Notes: generated by a model not told the origin, from the sequence alone. A DNA stretch of 64,000 bases from an uncultured Candidatus Saccharibacteria bacterium (GCA_964543075.1 CAZIVT010000001.1:7703-71702), one strand, 5' to 3'; counted from the first letter of the stretch, positions 1 to 63,537 are shown. Translations and numbers: made by a program.

Positions 1-98
1 ATCCCACGTGTTGCCGGGTACCGCCCAATCGTTGTGGAGCCACAGACCGTCGTCGCTGCGGTCCAGGTTGAAGACGAACGGGCGGCCGTCGGAGTCGG
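1..98 (-). repeat. DGR variable repeat (VR), in-window part only. It continues beyond position 1.
   Basis: The reverse complement of 1..98 aligns base-for-base with TR 2073..2170. There are 11 differences, all at TR adenines. By my hand count 11 of 28 TR adenines are changed and 0 of about 70 non-adenine positions. TR AAC/AAA/AAT/GAC codons become CGC, TTC, GAC, AGC, CAC, GTA, GGC and GAT in the VR. Confidence 0.85.
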
Positions 99-1791
99 AA
101 ATAGGCTTCATGCCGATGTGGAAATACTCTCCCAGAGGCTGATTGCGGTATTTGAGACGGTAATTGGGACCAGTGTCCGGTGGGCAGAGTTCAAGGCCAA
201 GCTCTTCCGCTCGCTCGAATATTTGGGTGGTAGTCGCGCTTGTCTTGAGACCCAGATCACCAACAGTGAGGCGGATGAGTGTCATCTCCTCGGGGTTCTT
301 TGTTGGAATGAATTCAGCTTTATTCAAGAGCATGCTTCGAGCATAGCTGGAAAGATTGATACTCGCAGCTTCGATTTCGGAGATGAGCTGTTCTGCCGAT
401 TTGCCTCCAACCTCCACATTTTCTCTCCTGATTTTCTTTTCGGGGAACGAAGTATATACGTGTTCCAAAGTCGCCGGAAGTTTTTGGAAAACACCGGGTT
501 CAAGCTGCCCGACATATGCTTTGGTATTTTCGGTTATCTCGCTCGGAACATGGGCTATCTGTTCTTTCGCGCACTCGAAAATCGTAAGCATGTCCTCTTC
601 CGTGTTGCGGCCTGCACGAAGCTCTTCAATACGGGGATCTTTTTCGTACCCGAAACCCTCGATCGTGGAGTTTATTTCATAGAGGAATGTGAGGTCTTCT
701 TTGGTGAAAGGCTCGTCTTTTTCATGCTTGCTTTCGAGAGCGGTGAGGAGGCGCATATCCTCGCTTTTCTTGCGATAAGCATCGGCTTCCACGCCGAATT
801 CGCCGAGCTTCTCGTCCAAGACTTCCTGCATGAGCGGTTCTACGCCCTGATGCGGCAGAATGCCGCGCACTTCGCCGATTCGATCTTTGCCTTCCATGCG
901 TATAGCAAGGCGTGGTTGAGTCGGCTCACCACTTGAATCGTTCGTATAGTAGACATAAAAGTCGCCGGACTCGATCTGAGTTTCGGCCGTTGATTTTCCG
1001 GCAGTGCACCAGCCGGTTCCTTTGCCTTCGAGAGACTCAAATAGTTTTTGTGAAGCTTCGTTGTCTCCTTGTTCATATTTTACCCACTGTCCCTGAATCT
1101 CCTCGCGGTTCTCCATCGAGGCTGCCAGAGATTTTGAAATGAGTTCTGCATAGAGCGTCGGGAATTTCTTGTCGAATTCTCTACGAGCCTCGGAATCCTT
1201 GTTATCGTCCTTAACTCTTTCATAGAGATCGGCGATCTGGGCCAAGGGCTCACGGTAGATATCCGGAAAAGGTGCTACCGTGGAATCGGTGCGCTTCTTA
1301 AACTCGCCGCGTTCCTTGTCGAACTGGGAAAGTTTGATGATTTGATTCCAGGCATAGTACTTGAACCATGTCGGATATACCGCATCCGGCGAAGTGAGAT
1401 ATTCCATCCATGCGTCGAGAGAGTGTCGCTGATCTTCGATTGCCGTCTCCATCATCTGCTCGCGCACATCGGCCGGAATTTCTTCTATATGCTGACCACG
1501 CTCACGGGCGATGCGCTTCTGAAGCTCGAAGTACGAATCGGGAAAATTCTCCTTCTTGATGATGAGCTTGTCGTATATCTTGTCGCGGAACATTTCGAGA
1601 TTTCGCTCCCGCTTGTCTTCGTCGGGATTGAGGAAGATGTTTTCCAGTCGATCCATGTAAGCCTCGATGCGCTCGGTGGGATTATTCGGGATTTTTTCTC
1701 CTTCGAGACGCTCTTTCTTCTCTACGGCAGACTGCACTTCAGGGGAAGTCTGGAGCTCGGGATTTTTCATGTGAAGCGGAAACTTTTCCAT
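1..1791 (-). CDS. DGR target protein (variable protein). Partial: the 3' end with the rest of the VR lies beyond the window start. About 597 aa are visible. No signal peptide, highly charged.
   Basis: The minus-strand ATG at 1791 opens a frame that runs to position 1 without a stop. I verified by hand the segments MEKFPLHMKNPELQTSPEVQSAVEKKERLEGEKIPNN (1791..1681), KDSEARREFDKKFPTLYAEL (1200..1141), FYVYYTNDSSGEPTQPRLAI (960..901) and the C-terminal GEYFHIGMKPISDSDGRPFVFNLDRSDDGLWLHNDWAVPGNTWD (rc of 1..135). The C-terminal codons are the VR cognate of the TR at 2073..2170. The plus-strand ORFs 34..936 and 1342..2022 are its antisense shadows. Confidence 0.8.
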   Translation of the reverse strand, partial: MEKFPLHMKNPELQTSPEVQSAVEKKERLEGEKIPNNPTERIEAYMDRLENIFLNPDEDKRERNLEMFRDKIYDKLIIKKENFPDSYFELQKRIARERGQHIEEIPADVREQMMETAIEDQRHSLDAWMEYLTSPDAVYPTWFKYYAWNQIIKLSQFDKERGEFKKRTDSTVAPFPDIYREPLAQIADLYERVKDDNKDSEARREFDKKFPTLYAELISKSLAASMENREEIQGQWVKYEQGDNEASQKLFESLEGKGTGWCTAGKSTAETQIESGDFYVYYTNDSSGEPTQPRLAIRMEGKDRIGEVRGILPHQGVEPLMQEVLDEKLGEFGVEADAYRKKSEDMRLLTALESKHEKDEPFTKEDLTFLYEINSTIEGFGYEKDPRIEELRAGRNTEEDMLTIFECAKEQIAHVPSEITENTKAYVGQLEPGVFQKLPATLEHVYTSFPEKKIRRENVEVGGKSAEQLISEIEAASINLSSYARSMLLNKAEFIPTKNPEEMTLIRLTVGDLGLKTSATTTQIFERAEELGLELCPPDTGPNYRLKYRNQPLGEYFHIGMKPISDSDGRPFVFNLDRSDDGLWLHNDWAVPGNTWD

Positions 1792-2072
1792 GGGCAAATT
1801 GTAGCAAAAATCGCATATTTTGGCTATAATTTTGCCGAATCGGTTGCATTGAACGGCTCCGGCTTTTCAAGACCCTTTCGGCTCATGCGGATTGAGAGTT
1901 CGTCCGGCTCCGGCTTGACGGAGAGGATTCGCATGGAAGTCAAAATAAAGAAAATACTTGGTGCGGCGCGTTCGCTGATTCTCGATCACGCATACAATTC
2001 AGTCCGGTCTTTTGCCCACTGAACTTCAGGAAGCATCAGATGGACGGTGGCATGGATGACGCGTCGCACGAA

Positions 2073-2200
2073 CCGACTCCGACGGCAACCCGAACGTCTT
2101 CAACCTGAACCGCAACGACGACGGTCTGTGGCTCAACAACGATTGGGCGAAACCCGACAACACGTGGAATCCGGACAACAAGTTCGTATTCCGTCTCCGA
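2073..2200 (+). repeat. DGR template repeat (TR). The 3' boundary is uncertain: at least 2170, probably about 2200.
   Basis: Sequence ccgactccgacggcAACccgAACgtcttcAACctgAACcgcAACgacgacggtctgtggctcAACAACgattgggcgAAAcccgacAACacgtggAAtccggacAACAAgttc. It is AAC-rich in the same codon frame as the VR, and identical to the VR except at adenines. It lies upstream of the RT on the same strand. It is followed at 2225..2247 by a perfect 14-bp palindrome agtaacatgttact plus a ttactag direct repeat. Confidence 0.85.
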
Positions 2201-2243
2201 AACTGTTTTCTTTTTCCGCGATCCAGTAACATGTTACTAGTTA

Positions 2244-2648
2244 CTAGCGGTCGCGGTTTTTCTTGTCCGGATTTTCAAGGCCTTTCTTCCATCCGTAAAA
2301 CATCTTACCTGACTCCTCAAGCTTCCGCGCCACATCTTCACACTGTTTGTTGGTGACAAGCTTGCCCTCCCAAGCTACGGCGACCAGAAACTTGAGCGTG
2401 TCGAGGACAAAAATGCATTCGGCGATCTTTTCCGCTTTCTTTTCTTTTTCGGTAAAATACGCCACATAGGACAGCTCGAGCAAATCGAGAAATTTATTTT
2501 CTATCCGAGCTCCGATGGTATATCGAGCGCCTTTGGAAATATGCGGAACAATATTAACCCACAACAAATATCCCTCTTTGACTCGCTGGAGAATCGAGGC
2601 GTTATCGAGAGAGAGAGAGAGAGAGAGAGTAGAATGCGGCCGCGTCAT
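2244..2648 (-). CDS. avd: Avd-like accessory protein (four-helix-bundle / 23S rRNA IVS family), divergent to the RT. Start codon uncertain: ATG 2657 or 2648, or a downstream non-ATG.
   Basis: The translation ...ILQRVKEGYLLWVNIVPHISKGARYTIGARIENKFLDLLELSYVAYFTEKEKKAEKIAECIFVLDTLKFLVAVAWEGKLVTNKQCEDVARKLEESGKMFYGWKKGL fits the IVS / four-helix-bundle pattern (W..helix, xPK.E.Y.L..Q.RR, then ...GKML.GL) that the Bordetella phage Avd belongs to. It is about 130 aa and basic, and sits between the TR and the RT. The stop TAG is at 2244..2246. Confidence 0.6.
   Translation of the reverse strand: MTRPHSTLSLSLSLDNASILQRVKEGYLLWVNIVPHISKGARYTIGARIENKFLDLLELSYVAYFTEKEKKAEKIAECIFVLDTLKFLVAVAWEGKLVTNKQCEDVARKLEESGKMFYGWKKGLENPDKKNRDR
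2609..2632. repeat. (GA)11-12 dinucleotide microsatellite in the divergent avd/RT 5' overlap.
   Basis: gagagagagagagagagagagag at 2609..2631. It encodes ERERERE in the RT frame and SLSLSLSL in the avd frame. Confidence 0.9.
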
Positions 2649-3623
2649 ATCTACCATAATATCATCTCCGTTGATAACTTGCTCTCGGCGTGGCGCGAGT
2701 TTCTGAAAAATAAGCGCGGCCGCAAAGATGTTAAGGAATTTTCGCTACGTCTCATGGACAACATCCTTGCTCTTAATAGCGATCTTGTAGATAAAACATA
2801 CCGGCATGGCGGTTATACTGCGTTTCGGATCAACGACCCGAAGCCGCGCGACATTCACAAGGCGACAGTGCGCGATCGGCTCCTGCATCACGCTATGTAT
2901 CGAATCCTGTATCCATATTTTGATCCGAAATTCATTTTTGATTCATATTCCTGTCGTCGCGTCAAAGGCACGCATCGGGCACTGAACCGTTTTCGCGACC
3001 ATGCACGCTCGGTCTCCCGTAACAACACACGCACGATTTGGATTTTGAAATGCGACATACGAAAATTTTTCGCCAATATAGATCATGAAATTCTGGGCAA
3101 GATTTTGAAAAAATATATTAGAAGTGGCAATACGATCTTACTTCTAAGCAAGGTCGTCAGGAGTTTCCATATTGAGGGCAGGCCAGGCGTCGGTCTGCCG
3201 CTTGGCAATCTCACGAGCCAGCTTTTGGTGAACGTATACATGAACGAATTTGATCACTTTCTCAAGCGCGAATTGAAGGTCGAACATTGCGTCAGATATG
3301 CAGACGATTTTGTCATATTGCACGAGAATAGGAAGCATCTGGAAAATTTGCTTCCTCTGATTTCCGAATTTCTTGAGACCCGATTGAAACTGTCTCTACA
3401 TCCCGATAAGGTATTCATAAAGACGTGGTCGTCCGGCGTTGATTTTCTCGGATGGGTACATTTTCCACATCATCGTGTGCCGCGCACTTCGACCAAAAGA
3501 CGAATGTTTAGAAATCTCGAAGCAAATTCAAAAGAAGAATCTCTTTCATCATATCGTGGACTTTTGAAGCATGGCGATACATACAAATTGAGGAAGATGT
3601 TGGATAGATATAATCGACATTAA
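2634..3623 (+). CDS. DGR reverse transcriptase. The probable start is ATG 2634; the ORF is open from 2541.
   Basis: N-terminus ...ISVDNLLSAWREFLKNKRGRKDVKEFSLRLMDNILALNSDLVDKTYRHGGYTAFRINDPKPRDIHKATVRDRLLHHAMYRILYPYFDPKFIFDSYSCRRVKGTHRAL... Motif 4 is GVGLPLGNLTSQLLVNVYM, carrying the DGR-type [ILV]GxxxSQ in place of the group II intron QGxxxSP. Motif 5 is VRYADDFVIL. It is colinear with Bordetella phage bRT (GVGIPIGSLTSQLFANVY ... RYMDDIVVL). Confidence 0.9.
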   Translation: MRPRHIYHNIISVDNLLSAWREFLKNKRGRKDVKEFSLRLMDNILALNSDLVDKTYRHGGYTAFRINDPKPRDIHKATVRDRLLHHAMYRILYPYFDPKFIFDSYSCRRVKGTHRALNRFRDHARSVSRNNTRTIWILKCDIRKFFANIDHEILGKILKKYIRSGNTILLLSKVVRSFHIEGRPGVGLPLGNLTSQLLVNVYMNEFDHFLKRELKVEHCVRYADDFVILHENRKHLENLLPLISEFLETRLKLSLHPDKVFIKTWSSGVDFLGWVHFPHHRVPRTSTKRRMFRNLEANSKEESLSSYRGLLKHGDTYKLRKMLDRYNRH

Positions 3624-3665
3624 GAGGTCTAGACATCCTCGGTGATCAGCGTCATCCATTAGGGT

Positions 3666-3995
3666 GTGATAAAGGATGATGATATTGAAGCGATCATAGA
3701 TGCGAGCAAGCATTTCAAATACCACGAGCCGACAGGTTCTACTCCCTTTAACCGTATCTCCAAATTGCCCGAATCCAAGAAGGATTTGAAGATGGCAATC
3801 AAGGAGCGCATCCGACTGCTCGTTGCCTCATACATCTCGCTCGCTTCCTTTATTGATGACGACCTCGTCGATTTTCTCGAGAGTGATGAAGTGCAGGTGC
3901 GTAAAGGTAAGGTGATACGGATATATAACAGAGTATTCAAAGATTTTGAGAAACTAAGAAAGGAAATTCAAAATTTTAACCCATTCGAGCCATGA
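3666..3995 (+). CDS. Hypothetical protein (109 aa) between the DGR RT and the recombinase.
   Basis: An intact ORF on the same strand as the RT and integrase, with an acidic N-terminus and a basic C-terminus. No recognisable family. Confidence 0.4.
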   Translation: MIKDDDIEAIIDASKHFKYHEPTGSTPFNRISKLPESKKDLKMAIKERIRLLVASYISLASFIDDDLVDFLESDEVQVRKGKVIRIYNRVFKDFEKLRKEIQNFNPFEP

Positions 3996-4129
3996 AAAAA
4001 TTTATTTTGAGCACGGTTTGGGAGAAAAGTTACCAACTCTGAAGGGTCGAGGGACGCCCTAGACTTCCTAGAGGGGTTGCGTCATTCCTTGTGTTTGTAA
4101 GGAATTAACAGCAAATAACACAAAAAATC

Positions 4130-5452
4130 ATGCAACAAATACAAGCGCCTGGAGGAGTGACGGCCAAACCAGCAAGCCCCGTAAAGGTAAAATACTGCCT
4201 GTATGCCAGAAAAAGCACCGAATCCGAGGAACGCCAAGTCCTTTCAATCGACAGCCAGATAAGCGAGATGTTGAAACTGGCTGAAAGAGAAGGTCTTGAG
4301 ATAGTATCCATGAAACGAGAGAGTCATTCTGCCAAAGAGACAGGACAACGACCTATTTTTAACGAGATCGTCGATGAGATAAAGGCAAAAAAGTTCAATG
4401 GAATACTGACATGGGCACCGGATCGTATTAGTCGTAATGCAGGCGATCTCGGCAAAGTCATCGATCTCATGGATGCCAATATCCTTCAGGACATTCGCAC
4501 GTACGGTCAAAGATTCACGAATAGTCCGAATGACAAGTTTATGCTTATGATCCTCTGCTCACAAGCAAAACTGGAGAACGACAACCGAGGTATCAACGTA
4601 AAGCGAGGACTTCGAACACGAGTCGAGATGGGACTCTGGCCTGGAATGGCACCCTTGGGATATCTCAATCAGAAGCTCATGGACAAGAAATGCCAACTGG
4701 CGATCGATCCAGCGAGAGCGCCAGTCATAAAGAAAATATTCGAGAAGGTGGCATACGAGCAGTGGAGTGGAAGGAAGGTATACAACTGGCTTAGGTTCGA
4801 GCTCAACTTCCATACGAGGGGTAATAGACCGCTTACGTTAAGTGGCGTATACAAAATCCTGGACAACCCCATATATTACGGCCCCTTCGAATTCCCAAAG
4901 AAAAGCGGCAACTGGTATCAAGGCAAGCATACACCCATAGTGGATCAGGAATTGTTCGAGAAAGCACAAGCTCACCTGAAGCGTGACCAAATTGTAAGAG
5001 AAACCAAGGAATTCTCCTTCACCAAGCTCTTCACCTGCGGATATTGTGGATCGGGTATATCCGCCGAGGAGAAGTGGAAACAGCTCAAGGCAGGCGGATC
5101 AAACAGATACATATACTACTCCTGCTCCAGAGCAAAGGATAGAAATTGTAAGAACAAATACATACGTGAAGAAGATCTGATTACGGAGCTTCTCAAAATA
5201 TTGGACAAGGTAAATCTGAATGAGCTCGGTATGCGGCAGAGATTGGAGGATGAAATTGCGAGATTCAATATCTTCCAGAGATCAGTCCTTGGCACCAAAG
5301 ACAAAGTTGAGGCAAGAAGCGATACTGATATCAGAAACTATGCGAAGTATATTCTCAAGGAAGGAACAGCGAATGAGAAGCGGGAGTTACTGGCGAATCT
5401 CAGAAGCAGGATCATATATAAGGACAAGACACTCACACTCGTAGAAGAATGA
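4130..5452 (+). CDS. Large serine recombinase (integrase).
   Basis: The N-terminal resolvase-type catalytic domain (VKYCLYARKSTESEERQVLSIDSQ...) is followed by a recombinase domain and a Cys-rich zinc-ribbon region (FTCGYCGSGISAEE...YYSCSRAKDRNCKNKYIRE). At 440 aa it matches phage and ICE large serine integrases. It sits next to the tRNA-Ser 3' end. Confidence 0.85.
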   Translation: MQQIQAPGGVTAKPASPVKVKYCLYARKSTESEERQVLSIDSQISEMLKLAEREGLEIVSMKRESHSAKETGQRPIFNEIVDEIKAKKFNGILTWAPDRISRNAGDLGKVIDLMDANILQDIRTYGQRFTNSPNDKFMLMILCSQAKLENDNRGINVKRGLRTRVEMGLWPGMAPLGYLNQKLMDKKCQLAIDPARAPVIKKIFEKVAYEQWSGRKVYNWLRFELNFHTRGNRPLTLSGVYKILDNPIYYGPFEFPKKSGNWYQGKHTPIVDQELFEKAQAHLKRDQIVRETKEFSFTKLFTCGYCGSGISAEEKWKQLKAGGSNRYIYYSCSRAKDRNCKNKYIREEDLITELLKILDKVNLNELGMRQRLEDEIARFNIFQRSVLGTKDKVEARSDTDIRNYAKYILKEGTANEKRELLANLRSRIIYKDKTLTLVEE

Positions 5453-5457
5453 TCGAT

Positions 5458-5492
5458 AACAAAAAAACAGCGATAGTTCTGCTTTTTTGTTC
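5458..5492 (+). terminator. Rho-independent terminator after the recombinase gene.
   Basis: aacaaaaaaacag-cgatagtt-ctgcttttttgtt: a stem with T-rich tail 6 bp after the TGA stop. Confidence 0.6.
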
Positions 5493-5563
5493 AGCGTAAT
5501 GAGGCTTGAAGGTCGCACTTCACTCCAAATCAATAAGGACACACCGATACTAAATTGTCAAGG

Positions 5564-5650
5564 CGGAGAGGAAGGGATTCGAACCCTTGATGCCCTTTCG
5601 GACATACGGCCTTTCCAGGGCCGCCCATTCGACCGCTCTGGCACCTCTCC
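5564..5650 (-). tRNA. tRNA-Ser (anticodon GGA).
   Basis: The reverse complement GGAGAGGTGCCAGAGCGGTCGAATGGGCGGCCCTGGAAAGGCCGTATGTCCGAAAGGGCATCAAGGGTTCGAATCCCTTCCTCTCCG folds as follows. Acceptor GGAGAGG/CCTCTCC. A 3-bp D-stem. Anticodon stem CGGCC/GGCCG with loop CTGGAAA (anticodon GGA). A long class II variable arm. T-arm AAGGG-TTCGAAT-CCCTT. Discriminator G. CCA is not encoded. Confidence 0.9.
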
Positions 5651-5796
5651 AAGTCAATTCAAAATGAAAAATCTACCGCACAACCACTCATTTGTAGCAT
5701 ATTATACGAAACGACGCATCTGCACCACCTCGCTTAGGTAACTGATGGGCACTATTCCGAAATTTTCAATTCTCAATTTTGAATTTTCAATTTTGC

Positions 5797-6702
5797 CTAC
5801 CATCTCCCGCTCGCACCGCCGCCCCCTGACATGCCGCCTCCGAACCCGCCGAAGCCTCCGCCTCCGAAACCACCTCCCCTGCCACCACCCAGGAAGATCG
5901 GCCAGAAACCGCCATGACCTCCTCCAGAGCCAGGTGGGCGCCTGGATACGACATAGTCGAACAGGAGACCGAGCAGAGTCAGGAGGACGGTCGCGGATAT
6001 GCCGATCGCTAGAGAACTCGCGATCAGCCCGATGATGGCGCCTATAACGGCCCCTATGACACCGCCCAGCCACCACGACTTGGTCTTACCAAGCAGACGA
6101 GCCATGATATTGAAGACGACGATGATCAGGAAAAATATGCCTCCCGACCATTCGCCACTATTAGAGCTCTGGGAAGATGGAGCTGAATACTGCGCCGCTT
6201 CCGGAGAACCGGAGATGGTGGCACTGAGAGCGTCCACAGCCGAAGAGATACCTTGTCCATATTCGCCTGCCTGAAAAGCGGGCGTGAGCACCTGTCTGAT
6301 GATATTCCCCGACTGGATGTCCGTCACGGCTCCCTCGAGACCGTAGCCGACTTCGATGCGCATCTGGCGATCATCGACGGCCACCAGGAGCAAGAGACCT
6401 GTATCGCGATCAGCCGAGCCGATGCCCCATTCTCGGAAGAGCTTTTCGGCATACGTCTCGATGGTCTCATCATCACCGATCGTCCTCACGGTGACCACGG
6501 CGACCTGAGCTCCCGTGGACTGTTCGATGGCCACGAGCTTGCCGTCGATCATAGCCTTCTCTTCAGCATTCAGAATGCCGGCAAAATCATTGACATGCCC
6601 TGTAGGACGACCAGGGCTCGTGTAGGCAAAAGCTTCGGGACTAGAAAGGAAGAGAGAAAAAGGAAGAAGGAAGGAAAAAGCTATAGTGGTGATATACTTC
6701 AT
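5797..6702 (-). CDS. TPM-domain protein (YgcG-like), secreted or membrane-anchored with a Gly-rich C-terminal tail.
   Basis: It has a signal peptide, then a TPM phosphatase-like domain (HVNDFAGILNAEEKAMIDGKL...VAVVTV...LLLLVAVDDRQMRIEVGYGLEG...), a TM helix and a GGGFGGGG tail. It is paired with the adjacent LemA gene, as is typical. Confidence 0.85.
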   Translation of the reverse strand: MKYITTIAFSFLLPFSLFLSSPEAFAYTSPGRPTGHVNDFAGILNAEEKAMIDGKLVAIEQSTGAQVAVVTVRTIGDDETIETYAEKLFREWGIGSADRDTGLLLLVAVDDRQMRIEVGYGLEGAVTDIQSGNIIRQVLTPAFQAGEYGQGISSAVDALSATISGSPEAAQYSAPSSQSSNSGEWSGGIFFLIIVVFNIMARLLGKTKSWWLGGVIGAVIGAIIGLIASSLAIGISATVLLTLLGLLFDYVVSRRPPGSGGGHGGFWPIFLGGGRGGGFGGGGFGGFGGGMSGGGGASGRW

Positions 6703-6808
6703 ACAGGAAAATACGAAATCTTAGGCACGAAATCCGAAACAGGCACAAAACAACCGTGTGATTTTTTCGAATTTCGAAATTCGAAATTCGTGCTTCGGAT
6801 TTTATGCC

Positions 6809-7366
6809 TTATATCAACTCCACCTTGGGTGCATTCTTCGCTCCCGTCTGGGCCTCGAAATACTCGATCTGATCGAAGCCGAACATAGAAGCAAAGACAT
6901 TTCGCGGGAAGCGCTTGATGGACGTGTTGTAGGCACGCACAGAATCATTGAAGCGGGTACGTTCTACACTAATCCTGTTCTCGGCACCCTCGAGCTGAGT
7001 CATGAGATCGCGAACCGTATCAGTCGAGCGGAGCGTCGGATAGTTCTCTATGACCGCCAAGAGGCGTCCGAGAGCAGTCTCGACCTGTCCGGCAGCAACG
7101 GCCTTTTCTGAAACTCCTTGTGCTCCAGCATAGCGAGTACGAGCCTCGGCGATAGCAGAAAACACCTCCTGCTCTTGATTCATGGCTCCCTTGACTGACT
7201 CCACGAGGTTGGGGATCAGGTCAAAGCGACGCTGATACTGGGTCTCTACCTGCTGCCACTGAGCGGTCGCCGCCTCATTCATGGTCACAAGGCTGTTGTA
7301 CGATGACCAGCCATAGAGTGCTAGTATGGCAATGAGCAGTATGATGACGATGAGGATCTTTTTCAT
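6809..7366 (-). CDS. LemA family protein.
   Basis: An N-terminal TM helix is followed by LemA motifs (QWQQVETQYQRRFDLIPNLVESVKG...TRFNDSVRAYNTSIKRFPRNVFASMFGF). Confidence 0.9.
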   Translation of the reverse strand: MKKILIVIILLIAILALYGWSSYNSLVTMNEAATAQWQQVETQYQRRFDLIPNLVESVKGAMNQEQEVFSAIAEARTRYAGAQGVSEKAVAAGQVETALGRLLAVIENYPTLRSTDTVRDLMTQLEGAENRISVERTRFNDSVRAYNTSIKRFPRNVFASMFGFDQIEYFEAQTGAKNAPKVELI

Positions 7367-7465
7367 GATTTGTATATGTTCTTTAGTTCTCGATCCCGCA
7401 CAAGAGCGGAATCGATTCGCCCGCCTTCGCCTAGTAGGCTCCGACGGGCAAACAACTCATAATTC

Positions 7466-8131
7466 TTAATTTGCCTTGGGTGCCTGTGTCTCATCTTTAC
7501 CTTGAGGACCTACGACAAAAGCGAAGCTCTTGACCATTTCTATGAAGTCAGTATCAGCAGAATTGACGATGGCTTTGTTGTTATTCTGAGCTTGGATGAT
7601 GTTCGAACCTGTGAGACCCTTACTTGCCGGATCAAGTGTGATAGACGAGAACGTGAAGAAGTAGCAGAGGCTGTCCTTCTGGAGAGAATACATGCGGTTG
7701 AAATAGTTGCGTCCCTGGATGGTATTGGACATGGAGATCGTATTCATAGTCTCTGCGCCCACCTGCAGGCTCCCACGATCCTTGACCGTGGTCACTGGCG
7801 GGAATTGGCACTTGCCGGAAAAGACGTTGATATCCGCCTGAAGCTTGCCCAAAGTCGAAACCTGATCCTTGTCGATGGGCACGAGGAACGTCACACCCAA
7901 ATCAGCCTCTGCCTTCTCCCATCCAGTAGGATACTGGACAGAGAAACCGAGCTCGGCATTTTGGTATTCAGATAGCTGACTAGATATCTTGGTGGTCTCG
8001 CTGACCTTTACTGGCTCATCACCATCTTCAGAATCTCTGTTGGATCCTGGAAAATCGACGTTGTTCTTGACATACGTGACACCGAGGACGATGAGTACGA
8101 TCACGATAACTATGAGTATGAGTTTTTTCAT
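7466..8131 (-). CDS. Hypothetical membrane-anchored protein (221 aa).
   Basis: An N-terminal TM anchor is followed by an extracytoplasmic domain. No family recognised. Confidence 0.55.
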   Translation of the reverse strand: MKKLILIVIVIVLIVLGVTYVKNNVDFPGSNRDSEDGDEPVKVSETTKISSQLSEYQNAELGFSVQYPTGWEKAEADLGVTFLVPIDKDQVSTLGKLQADINVFSGKCQFPPVTTVKDRGSLQVGAETMNTISMSNTIQGRNYFNRMYSLQKDSLCYFFTFSSITLDPASKGLTGSNIIQAQNNNKAIVNSADTDFIEMVKSFAFVVGPQGKDETQAPKAN

Positions 8132-8214
8132 ATGAGTAAACTGCCTTTTGGCTTGTAGTTAGGGCATTATAACACGTCATATCTGTGTGTATATCTTGAC
8201 ATGTATACAATATT

Positions 8215-8246
8215 ATATCATAAAACCCGCCATTCGAAGCAGGTTT
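8215..8246 (-). terminator. Probable terminator downstream of groEL.
   Basis: On the minus strand: aaacctgcttcgaatggcgggttt hairpin followed by TTTTAT. Confidence 0.45.
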
Positions 8247-8274
8247 ATGATGGTCATACCCAATATCAGATCCT

Positions 8275-9906
8275 CTAATAACCCATATCAGATGCGGGGG
8301 CAGGCTTCTTGTCCTCTGGCTCGTTGGCTATGGCGACCTCTGTAGTGAGGAGGATGGCCGCCGCAGAACAGGAGTTCTGGACCCCTAGACGCGTGACTTT
8401 GACTGGGTCGACGATGCCTGCGGAGATCATATCCACGACTATCCCGTCATTGAGCGCATCGTAGCCGAGATTTCCCTTGCCCGAACGGACCTTGTCGACG
8501 ATGACAGAACCATCTTCCTTGCCGGCGTTGACCGCGATCTGTCGGAGCGGAGCCTCGAGCGCCTTGATCACGATAGAACCACCGATGCGCGCCTCAGTAG
8601 AGAGCTTGTCGGCCTCTGTGAGCCATCCAGCGAGCTTGTGAGCGACTTTGACCAGTGCTACACCTCCACCAGCGACGATGCCCTCTTCGATGGCGGCCTT
8701 GGTGGCATTGACCGCGTCTTCGATCTTGAGCTTCAGGTACCTCATCTCCGTCTCCGTCGCCGCACCGACACGGATGACAGCCACACCGCCTGAGAGCTTG
8801 GCGATACGCTCGTCGAGCTTCTCTCGATCATACGATGACTCGATCGTCTCGCGCTGAGATTTGAGCTGAGATATGCGTTCTTCTATATCTGCCTTCTTGC
8901 CTTTGCCGCCGATGATGATGGTCTTGTCCTTGGTCGATACGACCTTGCGCGCCTTGCCGAGCATAGATATATCCGCCTTTTCGAAGGATATGCCGACTTC
9001 GTCGGAGATGACAGTCGCCCCAGCAGTGACAGCTATATCCTGAAGCATGTCTTTTTTCTTGTCTCCATATCCGGGCGCTTTGATGGCCAGTACGTTGAAG
9101 GTGCCTCGGATCTTGTTGAGCACGAATGTCGTCAGTGCTTCCCCATCGACATCTTCGGCGATGATGACGAGGTCTTTCTTGCCGGCATGAGCCAGCTGTT
9201 CCAGGAGCGGGAGGACCTCCTTGATAGCAGAGATCTTCCTGTCAGTGATCAGGATGGCAGGATCCTTGAACTCGGCCTCCATCCGGTCTGGATTGGTCAT
9301 CATGTACGCAGAAATATAGCCTTTATCAAACTGGATACCCTCCACTATCTCTGATCCGAGCTCCATCGACTGAGACTCCTCGACAGTGACCACGCCGTCC
9401 GGACCGACCTGCTTGATGGTATCAGCGATGATCGTCCCCAACTCTTCTGACTCGGCAGATATCGTGGCGACCTGGCGGATCTCTGCGTCTTCCTTGATGG
9501 GTTTGGCGATCTTCTTGAGCTCATCGATCGCGCGCTCCGCGGCCGCCTCTATGCCCTGCTTGATGCCCATAGCACTCACCCCCATAGTGGTGTGCTTGAG
9601 GCCCTCGGTGACCAACGCGCGAGTCAGTATAGTGGCCGTAGTGGTTCCATCTCCGGCGCCATCATTGGTCTTGGTGGCGACCTCCTTGACTATCTCTGCA
9701 CCCATGTTTTCGAACGGATCTTTGAGGACGATCTCTTTGGCGATGGAGACGCCATCATTGGTGATCGTGGGAGCGCCATAGCCCTTGTCGAAGACGACAT
9801 TCCTGCCGCGCGGACCGATAGTGATCTCGACCGCATCGGCGACCGCATCTATGCCGCGCTTGAGGGCTTTGCGAGCGTCTTCGTTGTACAGGATCTTTTT
9901 GGACAT
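8275..9906 (-). CDS. groL: Chaperonin GroEL (Cpn60).
   Basis: MSKKILYNEDARKALKRGIDAVADAVEITIGPRGRNVVFDKGYGAPTITNDGVSIAKEI... is full-length GroEL. Confidence 0.97.
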   Translation of the reverse strand: MSKKILYNEDARKALKRGIDAVADAVEITIGPRGRNVVFDKGYGAPTITNDGVSIAKEIVLKDPFENMGAEIVKEVATKTNDGAGDGTTTATILTRALVTEGLKHTTMGVSAMGIKQGIEAAAERAIDELKKIAKPIKEDAEIRQVATISAESEELGTIIADTIKQVGPDGVVTVEESQSMELGSEIVEGIQFDKGYISAYMMTNPDRMEAEFKDPAILITDRKISAIKEVLPLLEQLAHAGKKDLVIIAEDVDGEALTTFVLNKIRGTFNVLAIKAPGYGDKKKDMLQDIAVTAGATVISDEVGISFEKADISMLGKARKVVSTKDKTIIIGGKGKKADIEERISQLKSQRETIESSYDREKLDERIAKLSGGVAVIRVGAATETEMRYLKLKIEDAVNATKAAIEEGIVAGGGVALVKVAHKLAGWLTEADKLSTEARIGGSIVIKALEAPLRQIAVNAGKEDGSVIVDKVRSGKGNLGYDALNDGIVVDMISAGIVDPVKVTRLGVQNSCSAAAILLTTEVAIANEPEDKKPAPASDMGY

Positions 9907-9915
9907 AATGGTTGA

Positions 9916-10024
9916 AGAAGATCTAAACCCTAAACTCTAAGCTTTAAAAATCAAAGTCTATTTTTGGCATTTGGATTTTGATATTTGGGCTTCTTTAGGA
10001 TTTAGAACTTAGGATTTAGGATTT
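9916..10024. repeat. Structured 118-bp groES-groEL spacer with imperfect inverted repeats.
   Basis: atctaaaccctaaactctaagc (9921..9942) faces ctttaggatttagaacttaggatttaggattt (9992..10024). The spacer is unusually long and A/T-rich for a groES-groEL junction. Confidence 0.6.
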
Positions 10025-10345
10025 TTACTTTATAATCGCTAGTATCTCGCTCTCTCTCACGATGTAGTACTCTTCTCCGTCGACTCCTATCTTGTCTCCC
10101 CACTGAAATACGACGGTATCGCCAACCTCGACAGATAGTTCGATGAGCGCGCCGTCTTCGATCCTACCAGGACCGACGGCGACGACCGTGCCGCGCTTGC
10201 CGTCTTTGTTCTTGTCGGCACCCGATGGCAGGATGATGCCTGATGATGTCTTCTCCTCTCCACCGACAAGATGCTCCTGTATGAGGACCCTGTCAGCAAG
10301 GGGCTTGATCTTGTTTGATACATCCCTGTTTGCTTTGTGCTTCAT
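10025..10345 (-). CDS. groS: Co-chaperonin GroES (Cpn10).
   Basis: ...IKPLADRVLIQEHLVGGEEKTSSGIILPSGADKNKDGKRGTVVAVGPGR... Confidence 0.95.
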   Translation of the reverse strand: MKHKANRDVSNKIKPLADRVLIQEHLVGGEEKTSSGIILPSGADKNKDGKRGTVVAVGPGRIEDGALIELSVEVGDTVVFQWGDKIGVDGEEYYIVRESEILAIIK

Positions 10346-19094: not shown

Positions 19095-19159
19095 ACACAC
19101 ATGATATATTGAAAATTGAGGATTGAAAATTGAGGATTGGGGATTAACAGTGTTTATCT

Positions 19160-21607: not shown

Positions 21608-22303
21608 ATGAACAATCCCCATCATTCATTCGCCTTGACCCGCAAGGACATCCATGCCGAGGGGGTCAAGCGCCATCTCGACAAGATACATGACGAGTTC
21701 GCATCCGGATTCGAATTTCTCCGCAAATATCCGAAGTCTGTGACTATATATGGATCTGCCCGTACCAAGCCAGGCAGTCGCGAGTGGGACTTGGCCGAGA
21801 GCATCGGTCGCGAGATCGTCAAGAAGCTCGGTTATGCGGTCGTCACCGGCGGAGGCCCCGGGAGCATGGAGGCGGCCCACAAAGGCGCCAAAGAAGCGGG
21901 CGGGCAAGCTGTCGCCCTCGGCATAGAGCTCCCTCATGAGGGCAACACCAACCCGCACGCCACCGATCGCCTCCAGTTCACCTATTTCTTCTCGCGCAAG
22001 ACCATGCTGTCCTTCGCCGCGGAGGCGTACATCTTCATGCCCGGCGGATTCGGCACGTTCGACGAGCTCTTCGGCACCATGACGCTCATCCAGACCCGCA
22101 AGATACCCTCGGTGCCTGTCATCCTCGTCGGCTCCTGGTTCTGGAACGACCTCGCGGACTTCATCTCCAAGAACATGCTCTCCCAGCAAGAAGCGATCTC
22201 CGACTACGACATGGATATCTTCAAGATCTGCGACGACGTCGACCAGATCGTCGAGATCGTGCGCACCGCGCCGGTCTCCGAGTGGTGGAGGAATATCAAT
22301 TAG
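21608..22303 (+). CDS. LOG family protein (cytokinin riboside 5'-monophosphate phosphoribohydrolase-like / YvdD).
   Basis: ...VTIYGSARTKPGSREWDLAESIGREIVKKLGYAVVTGGGPGSMEAAHKGAKEAGG... Confidence 0.88.
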   Translation: MNNPHHSFALTRKDIHAEGVKRHLDKIHDEFASGFEFLRKYPKSVTIYGSARTKPGSREWDLAESIGREIVKKLGYAVVTGGGPGSMEAAHKGAKEAGGQAVALGIELPHEGNTNPHATDRLQFTYFFSRKTMLSFAAEAYIFMPGGFGTFDELFGTMTLIQTRKIPSVPVILVGSWFWNDLADFISKNMLSQQEAISDYDMDIFKICDDVDQIVEIVRTAPVSEWWRNIN

Positions 22304-22454
22304 ATTCAAGAAACAAGATCCAAGATTCATGACACAACTGCCCTTGTGTTTTCCTGATTCGTGAATCATGAATCTTGAATCAGTGCCGTTGTCTGCACAG
22401 AAAAATCCCGCATCAAACGATACGGGATTTTTCTTGAGATCTCTATCCTCGGGC

Positions 22455-43561: not shown

Positions 43562-43620
43562 GGGATTGAAAATTGAAGATTGAAGATTGAAGATTCGAGA
43601 CCGGAGATCGGGACCGCTCG

Positions 43621-53301: not shown

Positions 53302-53382
53302 ATTCAGTAATCAGTAAATCAGTAAATGGTAACCGGAAACAAGTAATCAATCTGTTTTACTGATTACTGTTTACTGATTACC
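53302..53382. repeat. Long imperfect hairpin filling the whole rpsJ-rplC spacer (cagtaa(a)t heptamer family).
   Basis: Left arm gattcagtaatcagtaaatcagtaaatgg, right arm gttttactgattactgtttactgattacc. It abuts the rplC ATG within 2 nt, and no SD-like sequence is visible. Confidence 0.7.
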
Positions 53383-53770: not shown

Positions 53771-53870
53771 GGGTAATGAATTAAAAGATTGAAAGAAGGA
53801 AAGATTGAAAAATTCCGGCAGTCTTGGTCAAATTTTCCAATCTTTCAATTCCTAATCTTTCAATTTCGAT

Positions 53871-63405: not shown

Positions 63406-63537
63406 AATTTAAAAGTTACAATGCAAAAATCAAAATTACAATTTAAAAGGCAAAACGTGACTCACGGATTTTATGCTCTGGAATTCTTGATTTTGAATTG
63501 CAATTTTGCATTTTGATTTTTGAATTTTACATTATTT
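63406..63537. repeat. Structured A/T-rich inverted-repeat spacer between the ABC permease and ATPase genes.
   Basis: caaaattacaattt ... aaattgcaattttgcattttgatttttgaatttt are inverted and direct repeats of a caattt/aaattg unit. Confidence 0.6.

Follow-up and report, generated by a model that had tools for sequence, protein, structure and literature searches.

The question raised by positions 1 to 3623 of the window (the whole stretch of DNA analysed here, 64,000 nt in length) is whether they hold a complete DGR and, if so, whether it is still at work and how it relates to DGRs already described. We conclude with high confidence that this segment is a complete, currently active DGR of the Patescibacteria-type TR-(avd)-RT architecture (B3), with all four DGR parts present: target, TR, avd and RT. 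The DGR itself is of a known kind; what is new is a slippery tract at the 5′ end of avd and two covarying stem-loops that flank the TR.

Template and variable repeats

The two repeats occupy the following positions:

2073..2202, plus strand: TR, 130 nt with 37 adenines, delimited by its alignment to the VR
1..98, minus strand: in-window part of the VR; the full VR is 130 nt (5840..5969 of contig L001), of which 32 nt lie past the left window edge

A preliminary description of this DNA had aligned the reverse complement of 1..98 with 2073..2170 and had reported mismatches at template adenines only. Our alignment agrees: it is gap-free with 87/98 identities, and all 11 mismatches fall at TR adenines (28 of which are present in the aligned segment), with none of the 70 non-adenine positions differing. 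The chance of 11 random mismatches all hitting an adenine in this 98-nt alignment is 1.9e-7. That the VR runs off the start of the window is also correct, but the missing part amounts to just 32 nt and the full length, thought to be out of view, can be seen in L001, a longer contig from a different run that supplies the part of the VR beyond the window edge. This extension added 12 mismatches, every one at an adenine, bringing the total to 23/23 over the full 130-nt TR/VR pair (P≈3e-16).

The earlier readings of the TR and VR peptides were exact, and the TR is indeed rich in AAC/AAA codons: 34 of its 37 adenines occupy codon positions 1-2 in the VR frame, and AAY makes up 10 of 42 codons. The VR ends four codons before the target stop, and the scan of approximately 70 kb yielded this single VR, at the 3′ end of the target.

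The same pattern extends to the family. Across 21 TR-VR comparisons from 20 related loci, mismatches numbered 401 at A sites and 19 at non-A sites (L024 was left out of this count, as an indel shifts its register). VR column entropy across the family was 2.43 bits for TR codons containing A versus 0.32 bits for the others (p=3e-8).

Reverse transcriptase and Avd

Two protein-coding genes and one candidate promoter lie to the right of the TR:

2634..3623, plus strand: DGR reverse transcriptase of 329 aa, matching bRT and phrog_1423 and containing LGNLTSQ and YADD
2244..2657, minus strand: avd (accessory variability determinant), antisense between TR and RT, recognised through Pfam and PHROG
2707..2734, minus strand: candidate sigma-70-like avd promoter, within the 5′ part of the RT gene, predicted by consensus scan only

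Both motifs previously attributed to the RT, LGNLTSQ and YADD, are found in its ORF, the start of which we correct from 2541 to the ATG at 2634. The RT had been placed immediately downstream of the TR; it does lie on the same strand, but avd intervenes on the minus strand, and both this gene and the repeat tract at its 5′ end (see below) had been overlooked.

In a structure-chain search, the best solved relative of the RT was Bordetella phage bRT (chain 8ub7_A, E=7.5e-43), ahead of retron-type and group II RTs as the next matches (9e-22); RT residues 3-321 align with bRT residues 4-316, in keeping with the colinearity noted earlier. Residues D215/D216 of the 8ub7_A chain agree with the bRT numbering in bioRxiv 10.1101/2023.10.23.563531. 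The phage RT family phrog_1423 matches the RT at 5e-104. No DGR-RT model match was returned for the RT from the NCBIfam library.

The top NCBIfam match of the RT was instead a group II intron RT/maturase model, and source annotations of homologs speak of a ‘retron-type’ or ‘group II intron’ RT, as might be expected if the RT were that of a retron or group II intron and an unrelated duplication of the target gene’s 3′ end had produced the inverted repeat. However, that match, at 152 bits, reaches half the cut-off of 300 and is far poorer than the match to bRT; the intron and retron RNA families searched for were not detected; and 23/23 adenine-only mismatches are beyond ordinary divergence. Taken with the bRT match, the adenine-only pattern refutes such an identity, to which we attach practically no credence.

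The avd product passes the cut-off for Pfam bAvd PF22296 (44.4 bits against 40), matches the PHROG ‘Avd protein of DGR’ at 3e-15 and scores 54 bits against NCBIfam DivGenRetAVD, under the curated cut-off of 80.

Target gene

The target is transcribed away from the plus-strand components:

<1..1791, minus strand: DGR target gene, 611 aa from the ATG at 1791 or 604 aa as called from the ATG at 1770
1798..1826, minus strand: candidate sigma-70-like target promoter, TAGCCA-17-TACAAT with TG, predicted by consensus scan only

The last 14 codons and the stop of the target gene fall to the left of the window. Its product is hydrophilic and cytoplasmic-looking, without a membrane segment, and belongs to a huge, unannotated family in Patescibacteria; neither the target nor any of 36 diverse relatives gave a Pfam match, even at E≤5. 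In the structural model, the N-terminal part is helical, an alpha/beta domain that follows is GNAT-like, and the C-terminal domain, which bears the VR, has C-type-lectin-like fold matches. Structural matches to phage PcfJ-like models were weak (E 0.03-1), and assignment of the target to the PcfJ-like family (Pfam PF14284) is not supported, a family-profile match being absent for the target and the 36 relatives at E≤5.

Ongoing activity and proposed mechanism

The preliminary description had proposed a search for VR heterogeneity confined to positions opposite TR adenines, and comparisons between assemblies and samples revealed just such variation. Between the window and L001, two assemblies from different runs, there are 8 differences in 6,775 positions, and each of the eight lies in the VR opposite a TR adenine. 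Two assemblies of a sibling element (L085 and L087, compared over 5,265 nt) show 19 differences, 19/19 at VR adenine sites, with identical TRs; an additional difference is a 2-nt indel in the repeat tract. On the evidence of this between-assembly VR turnover, the DGR is currently active.

A decayed relic, in which the TR/VR pattern records past activity and diversification is over, has parallels among the relatives: 8 mismatches in L008 fall outside A sites, and roughly one target homolog in two has neither RT nor Avd within 4.5 kb of it. Nevertheless, in the window all ORFs are intact and non-A mismatches are zero, and the differences described above for both elements fall at adenine-templated VR sites only; we thus consider a relic highly improbable.

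Contig extension, the relatives of the RT and VR heterogeneity all favour a DGR, and so support the earlier interpretation in terms of adenine-specific mutagenic retrohoming. Under the mechanism that we propose, plus-strand transcription would run across the TR (2073..2202); the RT (2634..3623) and Avd (2244..2657, encoded on the opposite strand) would copy the TR RNA into cDNA, misincorporating opposite template adenines; and this cDNA would take the place of the 130-nt VR, located at the 3′ end of the target gene (<1..1791), which is oriented divergently. The outcome would be the recoding of some 20 residues in a putative C-type-lectin-like ligand-binding domain of a target of about 610 aa. 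Here, the cDNA intermediate and the role of Avd are inferred from the BPP-1 paradigm.

RNA structures and 3′ boundary of the TR

Four features surround or delimit the TR on its own strand:

1993..1998, plus strand: candidate −10-like hexamer of a TR-RNA promoter, in a conserved block, TACAAT here and TAAAAT in most relatives
2002..2045, plus strand: 5′ stem-loop, part of a putative TR RNA; 7 of the 11 pairs in its RNAalifold consensus show compensatory changes
2182..2202, plus strand: IMH*-like 3′ boundary of the TR, GTTCGTATTCCGTCTCCG-A-AA
2216..2264, plus strand: 3′ stem-loop and U-run (arms 2216..2221/2251..2256, U-run 2257..2264), with compensatory changes in 6 of 7 pairs

The 3′ stem-loop and U-run are terminator-like on the TR strand, and the 3′ arm and U-run overlap the final codons of avd, encoded on the opposite strand. 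Both flanking hairpins appear again in a single-sequence fold. In the alignment, 92% of cells at the stem-loop positions can pair, versus 23-58% in slid controls, and 13 pairs carry double changes versus 7.0±1.3 in shuffles (0/500). Because the stem-loops are conserved and covary, the TR may well be expressed as an RNA of its own, of about 265 nt, bounded by the two structures. The −10-like hexamer lies just upstream of the 5′ stem-loop and is conserved in two alignments of relatives; a simple promoter scan made no call at 1993..1998. The stability of the whole 271-nt TR-RNA fold was no better than that of shuffles (z=-0.29).

Towards the 3′ end of the TR, an 18-nt invariant block, GTTCGTATTCCGTCTCCG, precedes a fixed difference: position 2200 is A in TRs and C in VRs at all 20+ loci. 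The sequence of this block is unrelated to the BPP-1 IMH and is not GC-rich. A search past the VR, as the preliminary description had advised, found no BPP-1-type GC-rich IMH, hairpin or cruciform; in the window’s lineage there is only a weak AT-rich stem across the stop codon, and GC-rich palindromes past the VR occur in L025 and L048 only. The GC-rich inverted repeat downstream of the IMH varies among known DGRs and is not universal.

Relationship to known DGRs and genomic setting

The four parts are likewise found in the BPP-1 DGR (mtd-VR / avd / TR / brt), which has a homologous Avd and an RT that is colinear with the one described here and has the xGxLTSQ and Y(A/M)DD motifs in common with it. 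Also alike are the adenine-specific substitutions, the VR at the 3′ end of the target, the adenines at codon positions 1-2 and structured RNA on either side of the TR. In contrast to BPP-1, avd here lies on the opposite strand between TR and RT, which rules out the upstream ‘avd:Sp’ duplex in its BPP-1 form; the target has a divergent orientation and does not encode a tail fibre; a GC-rich IMH and a cruciform are both missing; the host is cellular rather than a phage, with viral relatives absent; and a hypervariable repeat is present at the 5′ end of avd.

A closer counterpart is found in CPR bacteria, where TR-(avd)-RT constitutes architecture B3 (Wu et al. 2018, PMC5758913) and DGR clade 2 is CPR-restricted and cellular rather than viral (Roux et al. 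2021, PMC8144416). The locus is a member of these B3/clade 2 DGRs, as placed by its architecture and the host names of its relatives, and shows no architectural difference: gene order and strands are identical (TR, reverse-strand avd, RT), the relatives are Patescibacteria MAGs, the element is cellular with no viral relatives, and neither a domain nor a membrane segment can be recognised in the target. For CPR DGR targets, Wu et al. include a PcfJ-like motif in their list (PMC5758913), which may be set beside the weak PcfJ-like structural matches obtained here. Those parts of the texts of Wu et al. (PMC5758913) and Roux et al. (PMC8144416) that were consulted do not mention a repeat tract, covarying TR-flanking stem-loops or a fixed A/C marker. 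Relatives share a conserved TR-(avd)-RT module, which takes one of three positions with respect to the target. Judging from these relatives rather than from a marker gene, the host of the window is probably an ultra-small Patescibacteria/CPR bacterium.

Three further features lie beyond the RT:

3666..3995, plus strand: 109-aa ORF between RT and recombinase, also present in the sibling element (L086..L089)
4130..5452, plus strand: large serine recombinase/integrase (Pfam Resolvase, Recombinase and Zn_ribbon_recom; PHROG integrase, 1e-64)
5562..5650, minus strand: tRNA-Ser(GGA), directly past the recombinase

The recombinase is syntenic with the RT in L006, L019, L056 and L085. The tRNA-Ser(GGA) gene is possibly the integration site of a DGR-carrying island; no att repeat was found in the available DNA.

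A hypervariable tract at the 5′ end of avd

The remaining feature sits where avd and the RT gene meet:

2607..2629, no strand assigned: (GA)11G simple-sequence tract, within the 5′ end of the avd frame and 4 nt before the RT ATG

Read in the avd frame, the tract is (TC)n and encodes LSLSLSL. Across the 64 kb of the window there is no other long mono- or dinucleotide repeat, and the tract was found in 27/27 distinct loci of the lineage, as (GA)5-21 or G8-14. Its length is hypervariable both between and within lineages and changes even where the sequences are otherwise identical: L004 and L005 carry (GA)7 and (GA)11, respectively, with 0 substitutions over 2,100 nt, and in nine contigs that do not differ in RT or flanks the tract is (GA)9, (GA)10, (GA)12 or (GA)13; for comparison, a (GA)4 tract is invariant among nine contigs. 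All four copies of the window’s own element have (GA)11. The avd coding signal extends up to the tract, and an in-frame avd start (ATG) lies upstream of it in 11/27 loci, a fraction indistinguishable from the one-third expected by chance.

From these sequence patterns we tentatively suggest, as a plausible but unproven reading that we hold somewhat less likely than not, that slippage in the hypervariable (GA)n/Gn tract might shift the avd frame, making Avd, and hence mutagenesis, phase-variable. The arrangement is like that of SSR contingency loci (phase-variable genes of Haemophilus, Neisseria and Campylobacter) in three respects: a long mono- or dinucleotide tract is located where a reading frame begins, genomes that do not otherwise differ vary in the length of this tract, and both in-frame and out-of-frame states occur among the genomes compared here. 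Unlike in those loci, the gene affected here would encode a cofactor for a mutagenic retroelement and not a surface structure, and the tract lies 4 nt from the start codon of a divergent gene.

It is nearly an even call, falling just short of one, that the tract is neutral or structural: a slippage-prone homopurine leader or spacer in the ribosome-binding/5′UTR region of the RT that is tolerated near avd and exerts no ON/OFF control, with avd starting by another route. In most (GA)n loci the RT ATG is 1-4 nt past the tract, and RT translation is therefore independent of the tract frame. Since the in-frame fraction for avd approximates chance, the tract could be a tolerated slippery leader, and around ten codons downstream of it an in-frame TTG, GTG or ATG with a preceding GAGGG would give a shorter Avd of 104-107 aa, which gene callers often choose. 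Yet the codons between tract and TTG are conserved as protein (mostly synonymous changes, with a codon-position entropy of 0.37/0.16/0.58), the TTG is replaced by CTG in L020 and L074, and Avd family profiles begin to align at residue 18-21, directly past the tract. Moreover, retention of the tract in every locus despite switching between (GA)n and Gn argues for selection on the repeat as such.

Were slippage indeed to switch avd, then through slipped-strand mispairing targeted hypermutation would be on in one part of the population and off in the remainder, and these bacteria would possess a built-in stochastic switch: a contingency locus controlling a diversity generator.

Organisation of the cassette

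The locus is a cassette of a target gene (minus strand), a template region (TR, plus strand), avd (minus strand) and a reverse transcriptase (RT, plus strand). The genes and elements recognised here and alongside, including those to the left in L001—the same element assembled from another sequencing run—were as follows:

L001 763–5381, left of the target: a 929-aa TraG/TrwB/HerA-like ATPase and a Fic-domain protein
1..1791, minus strand: target gene, with the variable region (VR) at its 3′ end
2073..2202, plus strand: TR
2244..2657, minus strand: avd, a 137-codon ORF encoding an Avd homolog, between TR and RT
2607..2629: (GA)11G tract between the RT ATG (2634) and the avd core, in the avd frame
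2634..3623, plus strand: RT with LGNLTSQ and YADD motifs, its ATG 4 nt past the tract
after the RT: a 109-aa ORF
4130..5452: large serine recombinase
5562..5650: tRNA-Ser(GGA)

The preliminary description had placed the RT immediately after the TR on one strand; the shared strand holds, but the avd ORF, which that description did not mention, sits between them on the minus strand. The reverse complement of 1..98 aligned ungapped to 2073..2170 with 11 differences, all 11 at an A of the plus-strand copy and none at the 70 non-A positions (P = 1.9e-7 for 11 randomly placed mismatches all falling on adenines, given 28 A in 98 nt). Searching for exact copies of the neighbouring recombinase protein identified the element in three assemblies derived from other sequencing runs; exact-protein searches with the 330-aa RT and with P0001 (an NCBI protein encoded on a contig of 83.7 kb) gave no match. 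Extension of the locus 5.9 kb to the left in L001 (Logan SRR13355622) allowed the alignment of the whole VR that had been proposed: TR and VR are homologous over 130 nt, the VR ends four codons upstream of the target stop and all 23 differences lie at template adenines (P ≈ 3e-16), so that the claim of adenine-only mismatches stands over the full pair. Both peptide readings quoted earlier were exact. The VR peptide of P0001 is identical to that of the window over all 32 window codons and continues as PGSKFVFRLR, against PDNKFVFRLR in the template, consistent with A→G changes. Thirty-four of the 37 TR adenines occupy codon positions 1–2 of the VR frame. An A-masked TR scan of the window and the 5.9-kb left flank found no second VR or TR.

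The closest solved relative of the RT was 8ub7_A (328-aa chain; E = 7.5e-43, colinear over 3–321 versus 4–316), in which D215/D216 correspond to the active-site residue numbers given for bRT in a cryo-EM preprint on the DGR of Bordetella phage (bioRxiv 10.1101/2023.10.23.563531). This bears out the colinearity with bRT reported earlier, and the reported LGNLTSQ and YADD motifs are also present. The next-best solved matches were retron-type and group II intron RTs (~1e-21), and phrog_1423 matched at 5e-104. An NCBIfam scan of the RT returned no DGR-RT family, its best match being a group II intron model at half that model's cut-off. Translation of the RT probably does not begin with the longer ORF at 2541. 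The avd product scored above the gathering score of Pfam bAvd and matched the PHROG ‘Avd protein of DGR’ at 3e-15, with 54 bits against NCBIfam DivGenRetAVD, below its cut-off of 80.

Activity of the element

Comparison of the window with L001, an independent assembly, revealed eight differences in 6,775 aligned bases, all eight in the VR (9..69) opposite TR adenines. The same pattern was seen in a sibling element with an RT 92% identical to that of the window and a TR that differs at one base: between two contigs from different samples (L085 and L087; 5,265 nt), there were 19 substitutions and one 2-nt tract indel, with all 19 substitutions in the VR at TR adenines and the TRs identical. The expected heterogeneity, confined to positions opposite TR adenines, was thus found between assemblies rather than at read level. 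That the VR changes between assemblies are restricted to adenine sites in both pairs argues strongly against an inactive relic. Near-identical copies of these elements change at exactly two sites: the VR, by adenine mutagenesis, and the 5′ tract of avd, by slippage. We place the locus among the known CPR-type (Patescibacteria) DGRs as an active member; the earlier observation is confirmed and its interpretation supported. As a DGR, it is a clean, complete and demonstrably active cassette of this type.

Relatives and genomic setting

Thousands of CPR-type DGR cassettes are known. The target returned >2,600 matches in a 90%-clustered database (the best 120 all at ≥75% identity). Clustering at 50% left 5,546 representatives that match at E ≤ 1e-3, including 1,276 at E ≤ 1e-30. 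Named sources were nearly always Patescibacteria (Paceibacteria, Uhrbacteria, Kaiserbacteria, Giovannonibacteria, Ryanbacteria etc.), and no relatives were found in viral contigs. Across 76 loci fetched from species-representative genomes, the TR(+)–avd(−)–RT(+) module was conserved and lay either upstream of the target and inverted relative to it, as in the window, or downstream in either orientation. Mismatches between TR and VR numbered 401 at adenines versus 19 elsewhere (21 comparisons from 20 loci, leaving out L024, where an indel shifts the register). Entropy was 2.43 bits for VR columns with A-containing template codons versus 0.32 bits for other VR columns (p = 3e-8), and averaged 0.50 bits over the rest of the target protein.

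In roughly half of the target homologs, neither an RT nor an Avd is encoded within 4.5 kb (L010, L011, L013, L017, L021, L023, L032 and others). Their VR-like segments are poor in A (12–26 per 130 nt versus 29–40 in TRs), as if diversified, and these homologs may either serve as targets in trans or be orphans. Homologs with matches of ~2.3 kb were considered as carriers of insertions or inteins, a reading rejected on finding in-frame downstream copies of the TR. One locus, L019, contains a 3,381-nt tandem duplication (3550–10299; avd–TR–target) with two mismatches between copies and a C14 tract in both.

The window locus matches published descriptions of the B3 architecture, ‘TR-(avd)-RT’, which accounts for 90% of CPR DGRs (Wu et al., PMC5758913), and of DGR clade 2, which is Patescibacteria-restricted and cellular, with targets lacking recognisable domains (Roux et al., PMC8144416). 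Because these descriptions already fit, the inverted avd is not new.

In the sibling element (L085), the same gene order flanks the DGR, and the recombinase adjoins the RT in three other loci (L006, L019 and L056); other relatives lie among housekeeping genes. It is plausible that the DGR resides on an integrated island. A search of 70 kb found no att-like repeat of the tRNA-Ser.

The target protein

Neither the target nor its relatives, including those sharing only the N-terminal ~400 aa, matched any sequence family. Many relatives, among them P0121, P0122, P0133, P0152, P0246 and P0270, join this conserved N-terminal part (GTGWCT...PR...EVRG motifs) to different long C-termini (750–1,585 aa) that contain no known domains. 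Inspection by eye showed a hydrophilic N-terminus in the target and revealed neither a signal peptide nor a membrane segment. AlphaFold2 with a 130-sequence alignment produced a model with pLDDT 85 and pTM 0.66, with pLDDT >90 over the C-terminal half; a model from a shallow alignment of 76–94% identical sequences (pLDDT 52) was discarded.

Foldseek found no significant match to this model in the PDB; the top matches, all non-significant, were C-type-lectin carbohydrate-recognition domains (Mincle, BDCA2; E 0.16–0.7, target TM 0.41–0.45). In a viral structure library, the one significant match (E = 9e-6) was to an uncharacterised phage protein; PcfJ-like proteins matched weakly. A PcfJ-like motif has been described among CPR DGR targets (Wu et al., PMC5758913); assignment of the target to Pfam PcfJ gained no support from sequence searches and was rejected. 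In our reading, the target is a possibly enzymatic, cytoplasmic-looking protein whose lectin-like binding domain is diversified by the DGR. One of the largest uncharacterised families in Patescibacteria thereby gains a confident model, with parts that look enzyme-like and lectin-like.

The 3′ boundary of the VR

Every VR finishes with …GTTCG(T/C)(A/G)TTCCGTCTCCG-C-AA and every TR with …CCG-A-AA. Since C occupies position 2200 in all VRs, this site is a fixed marker, not a mutagenised adenine; as 2181 is still mutagenised, the homing boundary falls within 2182–2199. Judged from these alignments, the TR/VR boundary appears to behave like an IMH/IMH* pair, with a sequence block unrelated to the IMH of the Bordetella phage BPP-1. 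A GC-rich hairpin after the VR is absent from the window's lineage. In two loci, L025 and L048, perfect GC-rich palindromes (e.g. GCCCGCCCGA...TCGGGCGGGC) are inserted right at the 3′ edge of the VR, immediately after ...CTCCGCAA, and these resemble the BPP-1 cruciform.

Directly past the target stop are 4–6 tandem 8-nt units, NNCTTTGR, followed by a GC hairpin with a T-run (L001 ~5740–5826, minus strand). This array, also conserved in L007, L008, L012, L019, L022, L024, L026, L030 and L056, is non-coding, given its period of 8. The window contains many other short tandem arrays with a 7–8-nt period (e.g. AATTTTC ×4.9, TTTAGGA ×4.4, GATTGAA ×4.6), at 5761–5794, 6766–6790, 9994–10024, 19108–19145, 22302–22337, 43564–43595, 53304–53381, 53780–53814 and 63481–63533; the few with neighbours checked are intergenic. 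These arrays and the CTTTG array behind the target may be one kind of element, spread genome-wide in this organism.

Conserved stem-loops around the TR

In 24 aligned modules, conserved non-coding elements were seen on both sides of the TR:

1993–1998: conserved −10-like hexamer (TAAAAT/TACAAT), just upstream of the 5′ stem-loop
2002..2045, plus strand: conserved 5′ stem-loop with compensatory changes, ~25 nt upstream of the TR
2216..2221 and 2251..2256, plus strand: arms of a 3′ stem-loop with compensatory changes, 14 nt downstream of the TR, followed by a U-run at 2257..2264

Over the 18 stem pairs, 92.4% of alignment cells can pair, versus 23–58% with slid partners; double-sided changes occur in 13 of them, versus 7.0 ± 1.3 in shuffles, with none of 500 shuffles reaching the observed value. 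The 3′ arm and U-run overlap the last codons of avd (NPDKKNRDR*) on the opposite strand, and in divergent loci the encoded C-terminal residues change while pairing is kept. From these patterns, we infer that the TR would be transcribed as a discrete RNA of ~265 nt. The fold of this whole RNA is not unusually stable, a promoter scan called no site upstream of the 5′ stem-loop and Rfam had no match in 1780..2760.

The BPP-1 template has to be flanked by a segment of avd on its upstream side and by a 140-nt spacer, which together grip Avd and bRT (bioRxiv 10.1101/2023.10.23.563531). By analogy, the flanking hairpins are obvious candidates for such roles here; the BPP-1 ‘avd:Sp’ duplex cannot form in B3-type DGRs. 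These covarying stem-loops provide a first RNA model for DGRs of this type.

A 14-nt inverted repeat (I7; 2168..2181/2260..2273, 13/14 matching) was considered as a TR:spacer duplex and rejected: RNAalifold omits it, its pairs break in several relatives (alignment by eye) and repeats of similar size arise by chance. The TR codons N-P-D-N-K are near-identical to the avd C-terminal codons N-P-D-K-K on the opposite strand, and I7 is probably chance or a coding coincidence.

A hypervariable tract at the 5′ end of avd

No long mono- or dinucleotide repeat other than the (GA)11G tract occurs in the 64-kb window, and all 27 distinct loci of the lineage have a homopurine tract at the equivalent place: (GA)n in twelve lengths (n from 5 to 21) or G8 to G14, with (GA)11 plus G9 in one locus. 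Between the sister metagenome-assembled genomes L004 and L005, the only difference over 2,100 nt is (GA)7 versus (GA)11, and the contigs L085 and L090 show no substitutions in 2,996 nt alongside a 6-nt tract indel. Nine contigs with identical RT protein and flanks carry (GA)9, 9, 10, 10, 12, 12, 12, 13 and 13, a set from which tract lengths placing an upstream ATG in the RT frame would be missing, as they would alter the gene call and escape the look-up. A lineage with only (GA)4 was invariant in nine contigs, as expected of a short repeat. Two further RT groups (P0502 and P0496) are uninformative on tract polymorphism, since their RT call begins upstream of the tract, and an exact-flank scan of metagenome contigs found no match.

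We considered that avd might start downstream of the tract, at a TTG behind a conserved SD-like motif, leaving the tract intergenic. This was rejected: the codons directly behind the tract (D-[NS]-A-S-I-L-[QN]-R-[VI]-K-E-G-Y-L) evolve under protein-level conservation, varying most at the third codon position, and two loci have CTG in place of the TTG. Avd family profiles align from residue 18–21, just past the tract. It thus seems that avd needs a start upstream of the tract, such as the ATG at 2657 or 2648, in which case slippage by one unit would shift the avd frame. An in-frame upstream start is present in 11 of the 27 loci, which is also the chance expectation; L004 and L005 differ in having one. 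Translation of the RT should not depend on tract frame, because its ATG lies 1–4 nt past the tract in most (GA)n loci.

The tract and avd together would have the anatomy of a contingency locus. That slippage switches Avd ON and OFF is a tentative hypothesis that we consider less likely than not. Literature searches found no report linking DGRs with phase variation, simple sequence repeats or homopolymers, and the surveys of CPR DGRs consulted (PMC5758913; PMC8144416) make no mention of the tract. The lineage-wide hypervariable tract at the avd 5′ end, the covarying stem-loops flanking the TR and the fixed marker at 2200 appear to be new. If the hypothesis is true, a repeat-based ON/OFF switch on an essential cofactor would be a simple answer to how cellular DGRs are regulated, across a whole lineage.
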